Source: an uncultured virus (IMG/VR IMGVR_UViG_3300037156_000055)
Lineage: Duplodnaviria; Heunggongvirae; Uroviricota; Caudoviricetes
Reading direction: 5' to 3' (one strand)
IMG/VR virus record: IMGVR_UViG_3300037156_000055
DNA length: 64,000 nucleotides
Below, one piece after another: positions 35,301 to 48,594 of this stretch. A program made the position numbers and the translations under genes. Each line of letters starts with the position of its first letter. The stretch's first letter is position 1. Below the pieces are notes generated by a model. It saw nothing but the letters and a program-made list of their open reading frames with translations, made no database searches and was not told where the DNA came from.

Positions 35301-37187
35301 CTAATAGAGTCGCGCAGAAACTACGTGATGCGTTTCAACTGGAACCTCTTCAGCTTGTGAACCCCACACCATTGGTGCGTCAGTTCTCTTTTGCTTAGGA
35401 GCTAGTGCTTTATACGCAATGTTCGCAGCCCAGTTGGCGTAGATCACTGAATATGCGCCGTCATCATGAACGGGGCGTGTAAATGTATAATTACCCTTGG
35501 AATCGGTAATCGGTTTCCCTTCGCGATCTTTCTTGCGATCGATCTTCGGGAATTGACCAAGAGCTTCACGAATGTTATCAAGAATTTCGCCCTTGCTTGA
35601 CTTCTCATTGTAATACTCGGCGTCAGCAGTAGACATTGCTGTTCTAACTGTGCCGTTATCGAAACGAGCTTTCATATCAAGATGAAATGCGTTCTTGAGT
35701 TCAATCTCACTACTGATAGTTGAATCAACACGCGGGCCGAAAAGGCCAGATATCATAGTCTCGTCACTGGGACGAGTTAATACGACCTTTGCGCGACCCT
35801 GAAGTACATCTGGATGATCCCACGGATACATTGGTATGCATTCAGTAGAAACACCGTCAATGATCTGAGTCTTCTTCGTACAAGCTTCCGCAACTTGATA
35901 TCCGAGTGTACCACTCTTATCGAGTACAAAGTAATCGATGCTAGGATACTTGTTCTTTATCTTGTGCATGTGCCCAGCGATTTCTTCTGGACTTTGCTTT
36001 TCCCACTTGTAAACTGCGTGAAGATTTCGAACTTCATTGCCCGGCAAGCTCATAACAGCTATCTGTGTAGCGTCACTACCCATGCCAGCAGGATCGACTC
36101 CAGCAACGAATACCATTGAACTCTTATCCGGCGCTTTATCTAGCACCGGAACTTCAGCCGATTGACTCTCCATAATCTTATCAGTACGATACCAATTCGC
36201 GGACGACTTAATCCACTCGTTATAGTACGTCATACGCATCTCATCGCTGAGAATGCCTGTTACCTTATCCCTGCCTGTTTCCAATTGATGTAGGATTACG
36301 GCTAATGCGGCCGGGAAAGATTTTTTCGTATCTTCCGGTTCATCGGGATTAACTGGTCGCTGACTATTGATTACGTCATCGATAGTGATATCGAGGATGG
36401 CATAACCAGGGCGACCAAGTTTGATATAACGTGCGATGTCCATCAAAACAGAGTAGGCAAAGCAATCTTGATACCATGAAGTGGTAAGATGGATAAGCTT
36501 TGCGGGCTGCTCGCCCTTTTGGACGTTCAGGAATGGAACAACGTGTGATACATAGAGTTCACGCGGAAACAGATAGAACTCATCGAGTACAAGTACCGTT
36601 GCACGTTTACCGCGCAACGTCGAACCATCTCCAGCAGGCAACGCTTCAATTGAACTACCATTGATGAAAGTCATAATGACTTCATGGCCGCGTTTGATGT
36701 TGTCTTCCGGAATGTCTGCTTCGAGCTTGTAGATTAGCGCATCGATCTGAGAATTCGTTTTAATGATCTGCGCGCAGTAATCGTAGAGCGTCTTCGATTG
36801 CCTAAAGGAAGGCGCGATAATCTTTGCTGCTTGAAACGGGAACCTCAAGCTGTACGATACGAGCCAACGCGCAAGCGTATAGGATTTCGCCGAACCGCGA
36901 GCCGCTTGAATCCAAACGACCGTGTTGTTTTCGCATGTGCGAGTTATCGAACCCTGAAAGTCGTAAAGCGGTTCGAATGTACCTTCTTGCCAGTTCTGCC
37001 AATTGTTGCTTTCAGGAAAGAAGAATTCGTCAGCAAAGAATACGTCGCGCTTGATGTGTTCACACATCTGCTCGATAGTAGGTACATCTGCTGCGCTAAC
37101 CCAACTTTGTGGGATGATTGCTAAATCAGCTTTTCTCTGGGTTGAAAGAAAGGATTGCGGTTCTGAAATCGTGTTCATCTGCAACAT
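35301..37187 (-). CDS. terL: terminase large subunit
   Basis: Walker A AARGSAKS, LRGKRATVLVLDE Walker B, GVDPA and HDD nuclease motifs. Confidence 0.93.
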   Translation of the reverse strand: MLQMNTISEPQSFLSTQRKADLAIIPQSWVSAADVPTIEQMCEHIKRDVFFADEFFFPESNNWQNWQEGTFEPLYDFQGSITRTCENNTVVWIQAARGSAKSYTLARWLVSYSLRFPFQAAKIIAPSFRQSKTLYDYCAQIIKTNSQIDALIYKLEADIPEDNIKRGHEVIMTFINGSSIEALPAGDGSTLRGKRATVLVLDEFYLFPRELYVSHVVPFLNVQKGEQPAKLIHLTTSWYQDCFAYSVLMDIARYIKLGRPGYAILDITIDDVINSQRPVNPDEPEDTKKSFPAALAVILHQLETGRDKVTGILSDEMRMTYYNEWIKSSANWYRTDKIMESQSAEVPVLDKAPDKSSMVFVAGVDPAGMGSDATQIAVMSLPGNEVRNLHAVYKWEKQSPEEIAGHMHKIKNKYPSIDYFVLDKSGTLGYQVAEACTKKTQIIDGVSTECIPMYPWDHPDVLQGRAKVVLTRPSDETMISGLFGPRVDSTISSEIELKNAFHLDMKARFDNGTVRTAMSTADAEYYNEKSSKGEILDNIREALGQFPKIDRKKDREGKPITDSKGNYTFTRPVHDDGAYSVIYANWAANIAYKALAPKQKRTDAPMVWGSQAEEVPVETHHVVSARLY

Positions 37188-41640: not shown

Positions 41641-43955
41641 TGATGTCTTCTATTGCACTCTCATAGGCCGCGAAAGCGTCCCACCATTCCATCTCTTCGA
41701 GGTGCCTTAGTGATGCCATCCACCACCCCAGAATGTACTTCGCTGGCATCCCCTTCCACCATCCGACTCGGCAGTAACACTCTCTTGCGGGCTGGCATTC
41801 CCAACCCTCGGAATCGACCGTGAGTAAGACTTCGCCAACGGCGGGGGTGAACGACTTTGCCCAAGCGCGGAACTGGCTCTCTTGATCCTTGGTTTGGACG
41901 CAGGTCGGATGCCCCGCTACCCGGCCGCGTTGATAGCTTCCAGGGGGCGTAAACCCACCCATCTTTGGTAAGCGACTCACCGCTAGCCACCACCACCAGC
42001 TTTCGGCGCAGGGTACTCTACAGGCCGATTATTCTTCCAGAAGTAGACCTCTTGTATGGTTCTACCCACCCCAGACCAGCAGGGAGCCTTCAGCGGCCTG
42101 CTAGACCCCTCTACGGGCATTGTAGGAACCTCTCCAGTGAAGCAAATGTTGTGCTCAGCCCGGTACGCTTGAAGATCAGGAACGTAGTCGCACATCTGGC
42201 ACTCGCCGGGCGCATGAAGGATCGCTAAGTCCCAATGAGGATGCTTACCTAGAGTGATCAGGATATCTTCATAGTCTTGGGGCAGGCGCTTATCGTAGAA
42301 CACGTAGAGCTTCCTCGATGTCAGCTATCTGCAAACCAGCAAGCATAACTTGTTCTTCCGCTTGATTAACAACTTGAATCCACAAACATTGTTCACCTGG
42401 GCGTCGGCGACTTGGTCTTATGTAGAGTCGGGCAGTGTTACCATTATCGCTAGGCACACATGCTAAGAACGGTGTGCCATCGTCATACTCTCCGTTAGTC
42501 ATCAGTCACACTCCAACATGAGTTCGATAATTGCATCGTCTGCAATCTTGAGTAGTTCGTCGTAGTAGCCGCATTCGTCGCGGGCACCGTTAACGAAATT
42601 AAACTCGATAGCTTGCTTAACAGCATTGTATCGATCACGCAATGCGTAAGCAGTTGCTATTTCAACCATGTTGCCTTCTCATCTGGATGAATTACATTCC
42701 ATTGTGCTGCGTCATCAATTAGGTCTAAAGATTCTTCATCGTAATGGATATATGTTGGATGTGCCCGCAATATGCGATTACGTGCCTTACACACACCGCA
42801 ATGCACTACCGATGTAGCAGTTTCACTGCGGAACACATGCGCTAATGGGGTGATTAGCACATTTGGATCGAAATCGAGTTCTAAAGTCCCTCGTTCAAGT
42901 GTTTCCATTAGTAATTCGGATGCTTTGCAGTGAAAATGCTTTCAGCAATGCATTGTCCGATGTCGTAATGCTTGTTCATGAGCTTGTCAGCTTCGGCGCG
43001 AAGATTCGTAGCTTGACGTTCTAACTCGATCATTTCTTTATTCGGTGTGACCGGGATGGTTGCAATCCCGCCCTTGAAGCAGACGTTGTGACGAACGACA
43101 TCTGAACTATAGCGAGTTACCATGGTGTGTATACTCCGTCTTTGAATTGTCCAAGTGATTGTGTTACATAGAAAGCGTGGCCGGGATATTTCATTGTTAG
43201 ATCGCAGGCTCTGTCAAACGCCATATTGATATTTGGAATTCTCTTACCAATGACTTCATGCGACCATGATCGCACTTCCCAGAATGTACGTCGGGTCTTA
43301 GGCATCTGCATACTCTCTGTCAATGCGGGTAAGTCCATTTGTGTGTGAGCGGTCTGCCGCGAGACGTTGTTCGAGTCGCGCCAGCAAGACGAGCCCTTGA
43401 CGGATACGGCCAATCTCCGCTAGTTCTAAGAAACCAACGTCTACGTAGTTATTCGGATTGTTGTGCTTGACTACAAAGTCGATATGTTCGATGAGGTCTT
43501 CAGTTGTCATACGCGGCCACTAGCGAACACATAACCTCCTAGCTTTTCATAGTCTTCATTACTAAGAAACACTTTCGCAGCGCCTTTGAAGTAGACTACA
43601 ATCTCTTTCATGTTTGAGCCTTAAGGCGAGTCATGCGGCAGACCAAATCGATGTCTAATCGATCAGTAAGTTCATCTAGCAATTTATCGTATGCGACTTG
43701 ATCGTATCCATCGAGAATCTTGTACTCTTCGTCCGTAACGTCAACGAGGATGCTCGTTATAAGTTCTAGGTGTACCTTCATTCGCGGGCACCTGAGAGTG
43801 GGGTGCTTGCTCTCCCGTATGCTCTATTGAATAGTGCAGCTAGATGGAATAGGTCGGATGTATCTGCGCCGACACTAACTGCCTCACATCCGTCTGTTGC
43901 GAAGATGTCGATTACGTTATCTAGGATTTGAATTGTGATATTGTTACCGCTCATA
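41627..43955 (-). other. cluster of about 10 small coupled hypothetical ORFs (e.g. 41627-41980, 41983-42303, 42290-42502, 42657-42908, 42908-43123)
   Basis: Short ORFs with overlapping start/stop codons on minus strand. Confidence 0.6.
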
Positions 43956-44062
43956 GTGCGATAGCTTTCACGATAACTATGAGTCAAGGGGCGAGTCCTC
44001 TCTCGTGCAAGCACTCAAACAAAGAAAAGAATCTAGTTCTTTCAAACGAGTGCTGCTCAATC

Positions 44063-44091
44063 AGATTAACAGATTCGATTACATAAGTCAA
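44063..44091 (-). promoter_or_regulatory. sigma70-type leftward promoter
   Basis: TTGACT-17 nt-TAATCT with TGn extension on minus strand. Confidence 0.6.
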
Positions 44092-44779
44092 TAGCTTATT
44101 CGTAGTAAGCTTGCGAACGTGCCCTGCGTCTGAAATTCTTTGTTCGAGCGGTTCTCGCAAGAGGGTTCGCGAGTTTTTCCCCGCTTCCCCAAATTTTTAT
44201 TCGCGATGCATGTGATATAGCCGACATCGATAGATAACTATTTGGTTATATATTATCTTTTTCTTTTGGGGCTCAGAGCGTGTGACCATGTGGTGCCGCA
44301 GGAGTTAAAAAGTGACATGTAACCCTTGGAAACCCACCCCCGTATGGGTCCCGTGGCCCTCCTATTCACGAGGGAATGAGCACGATTAGCTAGCCCAGGA
44401 GATTGGCAAGTATGTATGTACGTGCCGGATGTATCTTTGCGTTGTCATTCGATGCGTCCGATTATGCAACTCAACGGACTAAACGCGCATGAAGTGAAAC
44501 GTATAACTAAACGGTTATGTATTGAGTTAACAATGGTAGGGTGCACGTTGTTACTTGCCGCGAGGTTAGCTATCAACAACTCGTAACCTAAGCACGAACC
44601 GAGTTACAATTAGACAAAACATAATTCAACCTAATTACTAATTCAATTAACTTCTAATTCAATTCAATTGCCTGTATTTGCTTACAGGCTAAGGATTATC
44701 TAATTAACAAGGTATGTCCCTGCGTCTTAGTGTTCTATTTGTCTGTATGTCCTTGGGATAGTCGGCTATGGCCCGGCAT

Positions 44780-44890
44780 CCTCAAATGCGTTTTAAGGGC
44801 TATTCCAGCCCTTCTGAGCGGCGATAGGGGTGGGCAGAGTATTATCTATGCAGGCAGGTTCGTTCCGTTCGTCCTGGGCGATTTAAGCAC
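44780..44890 (-). repeat. dispersed ~110-bp phased element
   Basis: CCCAGGACG..TAGATAATAC-N10-CCTATCGCCGCTCAGAAGGGC. Confidence 0.7.
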
Positions 44891-44912
44891 GAGAAAAAGC
44901 AAGTAAGAGGAC

Positions 44913-44943
44913 AAAATAAAGGAGCACCCTTGCGGGTGCTCCT
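44913..44943 (-). terminator. intrinsic terminator of the 3-gene leftward operon
   Basis: AGGAGCACCC-GCAA-GGGTGCTCCT followed by TTATTTT. Confidence 0.85.
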
Positions 44944-44964
44944 GTGGTATGTGAACCGAGGTTC

Positions 44965-45168
44965 CTAACTAACGTCTCGCCATTCGATTCGACCGACGTT
45001 CAAAGCATCTACGTTCGCGGTTTTCTTGAAGTACCGTTGCGCGAAAGCTTCCGCATCCTTGCGCATTGTGAACGAACGAAGGTCGCCGGTAGGCAGCATT
45101 ACCAAGAATCCGTCTTGGTCCCATTCGATTATTACCTTGCCTTGATTGAGTACGTTCGGTTTCGTCAT
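44965..45168 (-). CDS. hypothetical protein
   Basis: Last of three coupled ORFs. Confidence 0.65.
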   Translation of the reverse strand: MTKPNVLNQGKVIIEWDQDGFLVMLPTGDLRSFTMRKDAEAFAQRYFKKTANVDALNVGRIEWRDVS

Positions 45169-45383: not shown

Positions 45384-45728
45384 TTACTTGTTGCCTTTCA
45401 GTAGGTGCGCGTTCATAACTTCTTCCAGAGATGCGAACATTTTGAGGGGTTCGCGTAAGTAAGCTTCCACAGGCGATTCATTCCGGTCGATAGCAGCAAA
45501 CCATTCTGCCTTGCCAGCATCGTAGGTTTTCGCGATTATCCTGCGTTCGGCTGAAGGAAGCGCGAAAAATTCGTTTAGGTATGCAGGACGAGAATCATGG
45601 GTACGTTTGCGGCATGAAACTACCGCGCGGCATGTTCCATGATTAAATCGCGAAGTGAAGTTTTCGTATCCACAATTTTTGCATTGGCCTACTTTTTTGC
45701 CAGAGAACCGGGAGGGGTAGTTTTTCAC
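45384..45728 (-). CDS. hypothetical zinc-binding protein
   Basis: GTG start with AGGAAAGG RBS; CKNC..C..C. Confidence 0.65.
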   Translation of the reverse strand: MKNYPSRFSGKKVGQCKNCGYENFTSRFNHGTCRAVVSCRKRTHDSRPAYLNEFFALPSAERRIIAKTYDAGKAEWFAAIDRNESPVEAYLREPLKMFASLEEVMNAHLLKGNK

Positions 45729-45774
45729 TTGATAACCTTTCCTAAGTAGGTGTTTGTTTCCTTGGTACGCGTGA

Positions 45775-45804
45775 AGCGTACCAAAACCGACTTAGCAAAA
45801 TCAA
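45775..45804 (-). promoter_or_regulatory. leftward promoter overlapped by an inverted repeat
   Basis: TTGATT-18 nt-TACGCT with TGn; TTGGTACGC-N5-GCGTACCAA at 45762-45784. Confidence 0.5.
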
Positions 45805-45829
45805 GCATTTAGGCTATTCTTTACAATCG

Positions 45830-45930
45830 ACAGAAAGGGCCCTAGAAGGGCCTAGAACGCGTCTTAATTGCTATGGGGTACTCTTACCCTCGGACCCCTG
45901 CTATCGTCGAACCTAGCGAAATTTAAGCAT
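45830..45930 (+). repeat. dispersed ~110-bp phased element
   Basis: AAGGGCCTAGAACG..GGGTA-CTCT-TACCC..CTATCGTCG. Confidence 0.7.
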
Positions 45931-46065
45931 TTGACGAATTATCTTTTGTGTGCTACGGGCGCGCGTTCCTTACGGCGCGAGAAAGTGAAAACGGGCCGGA
46001 TTATTAGTAAGTACGCAGGGTGAAACTATGTAAAGGCGACTTAACAAACATAGGCAAAATAACTA

Positions 46066-46094
46066 TTGCAATTCGGCACGTATAGGCGCATCAT
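46066..46094 (+). promoter_or_regulatory. rightward promoter with GC-rich discriminator
   Basis: TTGCAA-17 nt-CATCAT followed by GCGGGGG. Confidence 0.45.
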
Positions 46095-46140
46095 GCGGGG
46101 GTCGGTCGCGGCCAGACAAGCCGGGGGCACGACAAAGAAC

Positions 46141-46159
46141 GAACCTTGAAAATTGAATA
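46141..46159 (+). promoter_or_regulatory. rrn-type boxA antitermination element
   Basis: GAACCTTGAAAATTGAATA, matching the boxA form known from cyanobacterial/Firmicutes rRNA operons; preceded by a small hairpin. Confidence 0.7.
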
Positions 46160-46935
46160 TGAAACTACTAGCGCAGGAAATAGTTTAGCGCGTGCTATGT
46201 GAATAGTACGAACGAAAACCCCTCTCGTTATGGCAGAAGTCTAAAGCTCGCAAAGCTTGGCGGTTTAGGAGATGACCGGAAATTACTTGGTTCGCCAGGG
46301 AAATTCGGTACCCCAAAAATTGCTAGACAACATGGCCTAGAGAAAACTTCCAAAGGCATGAAGGCTAGAACCCTTCAATTCATCCTAGGGGATATAAGTG
46401 GGGATACGTTCGGAGGGCAAACATAGATTAGACACGAGGCAGTAAAACGTCATCGAAACACATTCCTGGTGTTCTGGTACGGATCATATTCTATAAAGCA
46501 GAATCCAAAAATGACGAGAGGGCCAAACGCCTTCTCTCGCGGTCGGAAATGTGGTATCCAATCCAATCTAATCAGCGGAACGGATGGGCATTCTCCTCGG
46601 GGGCCAAAAGAGAAAGCTAAGGCGCGAACGTAGGACCGGCGGACAGGTTCTTAGTCTAAAAGTGATTTTGCAAAAATTGTCTAGAGCTTAAAACGCTAGG
46701 GAGGACCGTATTACGCTGGCCCCTAGTATGAAGTTTAGGTGAGGACGGAAAGCTAGATTCCAGTAAGGCATATGCGGTATCATCCGGCCCCTATAAAACG
46801 TCACAGTCTACCAGACAAGTAGATGACGAACGGGCAAAGAATCGAATGATACAAGGCAGGTTTACGAAGCGGATAGGCTAGGCCAGAACAAAGAGAACTA
46901 AGGGGAGAGGGTAGCGCAAACTACCCTCTCCCTTC
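46160..46935 (+). ncRNA. large structured non-coding RNA (GOLLD/ROOL size class, family unassigned)
   Basis: No credible ORF; many nested helices (46191-98/46203-10 with GUGA loop, 46323-30/46677-84, 46405-12/46625-32, 46448-53/46511-16, 46777-83/46846-52); 12-bp closing hairpin 46903-46932. Confidence 0.7.
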
Positions 46936-46951
46936 TCTTAGTAAGAGTTTA

Positions 46952-47126
46952 AACGCAGGGGTTAATCATAAAAGGCGAAGGTCCGAAGGGCTAACGGTAA
47001 ACGGGGCGGGGGACGGGGGACACCTAAAAATGTCCTACCTAGGCAGGGAATGTAAGGAAGTAAAGCATTCGACCGCGTTAGCTAACTAGTAAACTTGATT
47101 AACTTAAAAATTCGTCACCCTGTGTT
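46952..47126 (+). ncRNA. second structured RNA domain, about 175 nt
   Basis: Nested stems 46952-60/47118-26, 46961-68/47096-103, 46990-96/47076-82. Confidence 0.5.
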
Positions 47127-47165
47127 CTTAGTAAGTTTAGAAAAGGGTTTGAGAAAGAGGGTCCT

Positions 47166-47318
47166 ATGAATTGCAATATTTGCGGCCACCGCGCAGAATA
47201 TCAGGATGACAAAAATGGAGAAGTTATTTGTGCCCCTTGCCTGGGACCGTTCCCGGCTAATCATTACTCCTTGATAGATGAACCGGAAGAAGAATGGGAC
47301 GAAGAGTTTAATGTATAA
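47166..47318 (+). CDS. 50-aa zinc-finger microprotein with acidic tail
   Basis: GAGG RBS; MNCNIC...ICAPC...DEPEEEWDEEF. Confidence 0.65.
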   Translation: MNCNICGHRAEYQDDKNGEVICAPCLGPFPANHYSLIDEPEEEWDEEFNV

Positions 47319-47400
47319 CTTCTTCTGCGGCCAAGGACACTACTCTGGTGCAGGGTTACATACATGCCCAACCTGCGGTCTACAGAAAGGGAAACCATAA
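47311..47400 (+). CDS. 29-aa zinc-ribbon microprotein
   Basis: MYNFFCGQGH...CPTCG; overlaps upstream stop. Confidence 0.55.
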   Translation: MYNFFCGQGHYSGAGLHTCPTCGLQKGKP

Positions 47401-47402
47401 AT

Positions 47403-47507
47403 ATGGGACCGGGAAAACCAATCCGTTGTCTCACCTGCAATTCTCCGAAGTATTTTGACGTTAAGAAGGGGAAGCTTTGCTGCCCCGTTTGCGAAGGGAA
47501 ACCATAA
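47403..47507 (+). CDS. 34-aa zinc-ribbon microprotein
   Basis: CLTC...CPVC. Confidence 0.6.
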   Translation: MGPGKPIRCLTCNSPKYFDVKKGKLCCPVCEGKP

Positions 47508-48099: not shown

Positions 48100-48594
48100 A
48101 TGCTCGATACTTTTACGCGCGCGTACATTGATTGTGCGTTATGGTCTACCACGCCCTTCGGAACCTGTTTCTGCGAACATTCCTTAGAGAATCATGCAGG
48201 ATTCTCTTATGATACTTCCACAGGCGGAGAATGTTCCGCCTGTGATTGTACCGAATATCAGGAGGGGGACGTATCCTTTCAGACCCTTAATTACGAAGAG
48301 GAGGACATTTCACCTGATACCCTCGCGCGTATAGCGGAGGATTGTCGGACATTCCAGGAAGAGAACCAAGGTTCTCTTTTGTACCTATACGGTACCATCG
48401 GCATGAATTACGATGCAGCATCGGCTGGACATGATTTTTGGTTAACGCGTAACGGACATGGTGCAGGATTTTGGGACCGCTATTATGGGAAGGATAAACG
48501 CATCCTGTCCGCCTTCAAGGCGTTGACGGAATCATGCCAGCATCATACATTCGACCTATACCTAGGGGATGACGGAAAGGTTTGGGGGTCATAA
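48100..48594 (+). CDS. conserved phage early protein of unknown function
   Basis: AYIDCALWS and AGHDFWLTRNGHGAGFWDR motifs. Confidence 0.75.
   Translation: MLDTFTRAYIDCALWSTTPFGTCFCEHSLENHAGFSYDTSTGGECSACDCTEYQEGDVSFQTLNYEEEDISPDTLARIAEDCRTFQEENQGSLLYLYGTIGMNYDAASAGHDFWLTRNGHGAGFWDRYYGKDKRILSAFKALTESCQHHTFDLYLGDDGKVWGS

Follow-up and report, generated by a model that had tools for sequence, protein, structure and literature searches.

The window analysed here is a 64,000-nucleotide (nt) stretch of DNA from an uncultured virus (IMG/VR record IMGVR_UViG_3300037156_000055), and the element in question occupies positions 46066-46945 of its + strand, where a boxA word of the kind found in ribosomal RNA (rRNA) operons is followed by a long sequence poor in open reading frames (ORFs). 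The region lies inside a divergent intergenic stretch of 1437 nt (45729-47165), because the ORFs of the - strand stop at 45728 and those of the + strand begin at 47166. To the left, long - strand ORFs, among them the terminase (35301-37187, - strand; its relatives carry PF03237), reach up to about 42.3 kb and small ORFs continue on the same strand to 45728; the first leftward ORF, which bounds the intergenic stretch, is at 45384-45728. To the right, the first credible + strand ORF (47166-47318; ribosome-binding site GAGGG, codon score 0.325) encodes a zinc-ribbon protein of 50 amino acids, and protein scans place ParB, a tyrosine recombinase and a dCMP deaminase further along the same strand. 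Judged by this gene layout, the rightward transcription unit is probably early. Between the two gene sets the + strand shows, in order, a putative promoter, a small leader hairpin, the boxA word, a purine-rich body, a 3' hairpin domain and, last, a terminal hairpin of high stability.

The boxA word and its genomic contexts

The boxA word is the 19-mer GAACCTTGAAAATTGAATA at 46141-46159 (+ strand), made up of boxA itself (GAACCTTGAAAA) and a conserved 7-nt extension, TTGAATA, and it was followed through other genomes by exact word matches. Its first 12 bases are identical to the boxA given for the cyanobacterial 16S-23S spacer, GAACCTTGAAAA, in PMC8461337, and the word at 46141 agrees at 9 of 11 positions with the Bacillus subtilis consensus quoted in PMC13753749. 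The 19-mer is present once in the window, with no second (spacer) boxA. Elsewhere it occurs in 37 viral contigs and at a minimum of 122 loci (at least 122) in the genome collection, where by our estimate a random 19-mer should turn up about 4 times (596 Gb, both strands). Three other words of 17-19 nt taken from the region gave one chance match each in IMG/VR, none of which is a homologue. Among the genome matches listed, record titles name mostly Clostridia, and also Cyanobacteria, Patescibacteria, Chloroflexota and others. About 22 of the 37 viral contigs belong to a single family, in which a TTGATA-17-TATAAT promoter and hairpins directly precede boxA; the flanks of the remaining ones are unrelated.

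What follows the word was asked of Rfam on the same strand, for 40 of the at least 122 genome loci and for 19 viral loci. The 16S rRNA follows 46 and 87 nt on (L161, L149) and the 23S rRNA 50 nt on (L087); arrays of 5-8 transfer RNA (tRNA) genes follow in four cyanobacterial genomes (L053, L106, L108, L114), a single tRNA in one locus (L136), a CRISPR (clustered regularly interspaced short palindromic repeats) array in another (L060) and the pemK RNA motif (RF02913) in five Clostridia genomes (L051, L055, L061, L083, L130), and the other 26 of the 40 loci show no known RNA. On the viral side, five tRNAs follow in L038, the pemK motif in L026 and a group I intron in L009, L011 and L028. Since the same 19-mer precedes the arrays in L053, L106, L108, L114 and L038, boxA-headed tRNA arrays occur both in cells and in phages. 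One 19-nt word is common to Clostridia, Cyanobacteria, Chloroflexota, Patescibacteria and at least 37 viral contigs, and it offers an easy way to look for untranslated operons of phages and mobile elements.

Two of these contexts are worth describing in their own right. In the Clostridia genomes and in viral locus L026 the pemK motif stands about 20-290 nt 3' of the 19-mer on the same strand, and pemK leaders behind boxA are probably transcribed under Nus-factor antitermination. In the phage family represented by L009, L011 and L028, together with about 20 similar IMG/VR loci, a consensus promoter and two small hairpins accompany the boxA 19-mer, and in L009, L011 and L028 the group I intron is found 86-656 nt downstream of boxA.

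Upstream of boxA, a small leader hairpin is predicted by folding at 46101-46133 (+ strand), in a boxB-like position. Its inner part (46109-23), with the stem CGGC/GCCG and the loop CAGACAA, had been described in a reading of the sequence without any database search (hereafter the sequence-only reading) and is present as described there; the pair probabilities of the inner stem are 0.65-0.78. The hairpin ends 8 nt upstream of boxA, the arrangement seen in rrn leaders. In those of B. subtilis, according to PMC13753749 (2026), a small 5' hairpin is immediately followed by the boxA-like word AUGAUCUUUGAAA, which binds NusB. Over 128 distinct boxA loci, structure is stronger in the 45 nt before the word than in the 45 nt after it (mean z -1.51 vs -0.74; Wilcoxon p 9e-5). 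The sequence-only reading had likened this part of the region to the leader of an rRNA operon, and the comparison holds good: the cyanobacterial 12-mer is exact, the same 19-mer stands before 16S and 23S genes, and a hairpin precedes it. That the word at 46141-46159 is a genuine boxA is, as judged from these sequence matches, well supported.

Folding of the untranslated stretch

Behind boxA the + strand is ORF-poor and purine-rich over 46160-46776 (A 32% and G 27% over 46100-46945). No ORF longer than 75 amino acids was found within 46066-46945, and the next ~780 nt are without a supported gene, in agreement with the ~770 nt without a credible ORF that had been reported before. The earlier proposal went further and saw in this stretch a large ornate RNA, either GOLLD- or ROOL-like or of a new class, filled with nested complementary segments. 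The segments are all at the positions given for them, as complementary letters of the + strand: the long-range pair CTAGACAA/TTGTCTAG (46323-30/46677-84) encloses TACGTTCG/CGAACGTA (46405-12/46625-32), and this encloses the inner pairs GATTAGA (46426)/TCTAATC (46567) and CGTCAT (46448)/ATGACG (46511). What did not stand is their significance. The body contains 6 perfectly complementary 8-mers vs 3.1 ± 2.3 in shuffled sequence (45 of 300 shuffles reach 6) and 18 complementary 7-mers vs 13.8 (70 of 300 have as many), and the two 8-bp long-range helices are improbable, with pair probabilities of 0.16 and 0.29.

The body as a whole (46160-46895) has a minimum free energy of -201.0 kcal/mol vs -199.8 ± 7.5 kcal/mol in 60 dinucleotide shuffles (z -0.15; - strand fold, z -0.67), a folding energy no better than that of shuffles, an outcome that the sequence-only reading itself had named as refuting its proposal. 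The fold ensemble is diffuse, with a mean pair distance (diversity) of 190 for 841 nt, and a search for a leader-trailer helix returned no 5'/3' duplex better than shuffles. Taken over the whole region, z is -2.32 on the + strand and -1.76 on the - strand (20 shuffles each). The former value is owed to the 3' end, because sliding windows of 200 nt stay at about z 0 over 45800-46899 and are strong just where the 3' hairpins are included (-4.3 at 46750-46949; -3.8 in another case). None of the 4227 Rfam models matched at gathering score, and a scan of 1.5 kb with lax filters and E up to 10 gave only four chance-level rows. The body 46160-46895 is not supported as a demonstrably folded RNA, and the large ornate RNA is likewise unsupported. 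A sponge or repeat function was also considered and dropped, since GGA, AGGA and all 5-7-mers in the region are at shuffle level and none is enriched.

Three hairpin elements of the sequence-only reading were recovered in place and are above chance. An 8-bp hairpin with a GUGA tetraloop, CGTGCTAT/ATAGTACG (46191-98/46203-10, + strand), has -10 kcal/mol with z -2.31 over 46191-46210, 6 of 200 shuffles being as good, and pair probabilities of ~0.8. The 3' hairpin domain (46777-46852, + strand) is bounded by the outer stem GTATCAT/ATGATAC (46777-83/46846-52) and carries the apical helix TCTAC-CAGACAA-GTAGA at 46807-23; folded over 46772-46857 it has z -2.31, equalled by 2 of 200 shuffles. The loop of this apical helix is the same as that of the leader hairpin. 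Eight CAGACAA sites exist in the window and just two of them are hairpin loops (46109-23 and 46807-23); given 16 hairpins with 7-nt loops in the region, the chance of any shared loop is estimated at p ~0.01, and the coincidence remarked on earlier is thus real and above chance.

The most significant element is the terminal hairpin at 46897-46942, which had been described as a closing 12-bp hairpin and is found by folding on both strands, with a GC-rich core of 12-13 bp and a CUAAG/CUUAG extension. It reaches -29.0 kcal/mol (z -6.2; equalled by 0 of 200 shuffles) on the + strand and -29.8 kcal/mol (z -5.8) on the - strand. A terminator scan lists it as terminator-like on the - strand. On the + strand its tail is TTCTCTTAG, and the U tract UUCUCUUAG is interrupted and pairs with the upstream CUAAG in the fold. 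The hairpin could be a terminator, an attenuator or a processing or stabilising hairpin. It is followed on the + strand by a 190-nt segment (46946-47135) set between 10-nt direct repeats, TCTTAGTAAG (46936-45 and 47126-35).

The one relative found is a 320-nt contig from run X5, of a third peat study. It overlaps 46640-46885 (246 nt) with 22 substitutions and 6 indels, of which 19 listed substitutions and 6 of the 6 indels all fall in 46771-46852, the hairpin domain; the 131 nt to the left of the domain are nearly identical, the following 82 nt are ~30% different, and then comes an indel. In the X5 variant the helices are rebuilt with other letters, TCTAC/GTAGA of the apical helix becoming ACCCT/AGGGT and GCCC/GGGC becoming CCCA/TGGG, at a similar energy (-59.1 vs -60.4 kcal/mol over 246 nt). 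When random letters are put at the same positions, 197 of 3000 cases give a 5-bp apical helix, 879 of 3000 an equal or better energy and 129 of 3000 both together; when the positions are random, 373 of 2000 fold as well as the X5 variant. The helix replacement is a hint of selection on the 3' hairpin and not a proof of it.

Past 46885, 52 letters of the contig are unaligned, after which it matches 47126-47147. Because TCTTAGTAAG stands at both 46936-45 and 47126-35, the contig may be read as having the 50-nt terminal-hairpin segment in diverged form and lacking the 190 nt between the repeats. The repeat pair itself looks like a short-repeat indel just upstream of the first early ORF. On this reading the body would directly precede the first ORF in X5, ~190 nt closer than in the window, which fits a leader better than a separate gene.

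Other searches for relatives used the terminase as an anchor. Neither the single protein nor a 27-sequence alignment yielded relatives in IMG/VR, and the same alignment gave 13 pattern matches in genome contigs, 0 of them confirmed. Six metagenome loci reached through the alignment (L002-L007) contain nothing like 45700-47200 by blastn or nhmmer in their upstream flanks of 3.2-7.1 kb, which may not extend to the syntenic spot. No repeats or diversity-generating retroelement were found to link the region to the rest of the window. Among RNA datasets, none carrying the region was found, and RNA run X6 showed only a dissimilar match of 34 nt.

A possible rrn-type leader and its rivals

On balance, we lean towards reading the region as an rrn-type Nus-factor antitermination leader that heads a long untranslated early RNA or 5' leader. 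Transcription would start near 46100, from the putative weak promoter, and the RNA would form the small hairpin and then expose an exact host-type boxA. This boxA would most likely load host NusB-S10, and an rrn-type antitermination complex would be built together with NusA, NusG and accessory factors. In the rrn system, as reported in PMC13753749, the complex blocks Rho and interferes with intrinsic termination. A complex of this type would resist Rho and be less affected by hairpin terminators, and the polymerase may therefore cross ~0.8-1.0 kb of ribosome-free, purine-rich RNA and very small ORFs. At the far end the terminal hairpin might stop part of the transcripts, giving a discrete RNA of ~840 nt, or might act as a processing or stabilising site before the first ORF. 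The reading is favoured by a promoter scan that lists no + strand site between the leader hairpin and the ORF at 47166. The identity of boxA with its contexts in other genomes, the lack of a supported gene and the local hairpins are shown; we infer the promoter, the loading of Nus factors, the read-through and any function of the body.

Several points weigh against this reading. The promoter proposed earlier, TTGCAA-17-CATCAT, does have its letters in place (TTGCAA 46066-71, CATCAT 46089-94, + strand), and it is weak: it matches 8 of 12 consensus positions and is missing from the list of a promoter scan that itself is at chance level, with 7 sites found vs 6.5 ± 2.6 in shuffles. If the terminal hairpin stops the transcript before the genes, those genes would need a promoter that is not seen. 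The leader hairpin on its own is not significant (-14.9 kcal/mol, z -1.49; 17 of 200 shuffles equal it). At 83 distinct boxA loci the first ORF of at least 70 amino acids begins at a median of 292 nt downstream, and in just 8 of the 83 does it lie at least 900 nt away or not exist, which makes a leader of ~1 kb unusual; boxA alone is no marker of non-coding RNA, because the first ORF is usually near. Finally, the host of this phage may lack Rho or this boxA.

Comparison with known systems gives the reading its shape. The rrn leader module is matched by the identical cyanobacterial boxA, by the 19-mer standing 46-87 nt ahead of 16S genes and 50 nt ahead of a 23S gene, by the small hairpin just upstream, as in B. 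subtilis, and by the untranslated sequence after it. It differs in that our case is set in a phage, with no rRNA or tRNA following, and is without a leader-trailer processing helix or a second boxA. The boxA-headed CRISPR and tRNA arrays and the pemK leaders of Clostridia mobile elements share the same exact 19-mer, and the common logic with such non-rRNA operons is presumed to be the protection of ribosome-free transcription; however, behind boxA the window carries neither repeats nor tRNAs nor a pemK motif, and the sequence there belongs to no known family. With the nut sites of lambda the region has in common the position in a phage early-operon leader and a boxA with a neighbouring hairpin as a possible binding site for a factor. 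In lambda, however, the hairpin follows boxA, whereas here it precedes it, the boxA is the full host rrn word and ~1 kb of non-coding sequence comes after it. No N-like Pfam match was obtained in the 24 ORFs scanned, many mini-ORFs being outside that scan.

If the leader reading is right, this phage would borrow the host's rRNA antitermination signal, without a lambda-N-like partner, so that polymerase passes a long stretch free of ribosomes as infection begins. Control by Nus factors and boxA, seen so far in rRNA, CRISPR arrays and a few cellular genes, would then also cover the early transcription of a phage. The literature searched treats boxA in rRNA operons, in suhB, in CRISPR arrays and in lambda; among the titles and passages covered, phage leaders of the present kind were not found, which is no proof of their absence.

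Four other readings remain, in the order in which they are taken here. The first is a structured non-coding RNA of a new class, discrete and ~840 nt long, transcribed with rrn-type antitermination up to the terminal hairpin that ends it, with the two CAGACAA hairpins serving, if so, as docking sites for one phage or host protein. We consider it unlikely. It would account for a boxA that elsewhere heads RNA-only operons (rRNA, tRNA arrays, a CRISPR array), for an ORF-free region in which two hairpins have identical 7-nt loops, for the presence of the GNRA hairpin, the 3' domain and the terminal hairpin, and for an apical helix that X5 has rebuilt with different letters. However, the body, the local windows and the complementary segments are all at the level of shuffled sequence, the long-range helices are improbable within a diffuse ensemble that lacks a leader-trailer helix, neither Rfam nor GenBank phages, IMG/VR patterns or the loci of the six relatives offered a match or homologue, and the compensatory case in X5 is weak when set against its nulls. 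Were it true, the RNA would be one case of a wider, undescribed phage habit of placing an rrn-style boxA before RNA-only early products.

Ranked behind it, and also unlikely, is a functionless spacer, in which a captured module of hairpin and boxA drives the early genes and the sequence behind is drifting or mosaic filler. The body resembles shuffles in its fold and in its k-mer content, the pattern in X5 is mosaic and the six relatives' loci have nothing in common with the region, all of which would suit filler. Against this, ~0.8 kb of filler in front of an operon is a high price for a compact phage genome, the purine skew of the strand resembles that of the early genes' sense strand, and the 3' domain and the terminal hairpin are well formed.

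The third reading places the function at the level of DNA or of an R-loop: a purine-rich untranslated transcript would activate or prime a replication origin in the divergent region, or the region would serve in packaging or regulation. The transcript is rich in G and A, the cumulative GC skew has its minimum at ~42-44 kb, and a neighbouring ORF-poor stretch (43960-44945) has short AT-rich repeats and a strong fold. No iterons or repeats, however, were found within 46066-46945, and the switch in GC skew coincides with the switch in gene direction and so does not locate an origin; we regard this reading as improbable.

The last of the four, a gene read through in frame 2 or a recently decayed one, is more doubtful still. 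Frame 2 over 46184-46633 (+ strand) runs for 150 codons with one TAG, where we estimate that ~8 stops would be expected. It scores best of the frames in windows within 46230-46500, and its codon score over 46184-46423 is 0.077 vs -0.28 in the other frames. Its second half scores -0.063, however, and the real early genes 0.367 ± 0.104; the frame has no ribosome-binding site or ATG start, it found no match in Pfam or PHROG at E up to 1, its sole match among 5.8 billion proteins was the window's own call of 75 amino acids, and among 1.84 billion representatives the same call was joined by a weak match of 29 residues (E 3.6e-4). No suppressor tRNA is available, as the sole tRNA in the window is Thr. 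A coding role for 46184-46633 is unlikely. The open frame can be seen as chance in a T-poor strand or as a decayed gene.

As for membership in GOLLD or ROOL, large ornate RNAs treated in a cryo-EM paper (PMC12286853) that the region resembles in size range and in its setting as a large ORF-free stretch in a phage, it is effectively refuted by the Rfam results, both over the 4227 models and with E up to 10, and by the fold results, there being here no covariance-model match, no thermodynamic signal and no homologue family.

The surrounding phage genome

The tailed-phage genome in the window is without a close relative in GenBank. A blastn comparison of 45800-47200 with GenBank phages gave no match, the terminase resembles those of Bacillus and other phages in GenBank at just 24-36% identity over part of its length, and a database search with the capsid protein gave no match. 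The nearest terminase relatives at the protein level are 87-76% identical, and the close relatives as a group span 87-62%, their longest contigs reaching 82 kb. DNA that is at least 99% identical is present in contigs of the peat-metagenome runs X2 and X3, from two studies in addition to the run that may be the source.

The rightward cluster opens, over 47166-47507 (+ strand), with very small ORFs that have cysteine pairs and are zinc-ribbon-like. The first of them, the 50-amino-acid ORF at 47166-47318, has weak matches to Lar restriction alleviation and to the TFIIB zinc ribbon, under the Pfam cut-offs. Further on, a cysteine-rich protein of 164 amino acids (48100-48594, + strand) without a Pfam domain belongs to a very large uncharacterised family. 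With 7374 proteins matched at E<=0.001 and the closest relative at 55%, the family is too large for this protein to be of use as an anchor for homologues.

A second ORF-poor stretch of ~1 kb (43931-44965) lies to the left of three small leftward genes. It has no Rfam match at E up to 5, and its - strand fold is far better than that of shuffled sequence (z -4.76, 20 shuffles). Short AT-rich repeats like AATTCAATT are found near 44600-44680, and a clean - strand terminator at 44943-44920. This stretch may serve as an origin or in regulation, or may be a further RNA.

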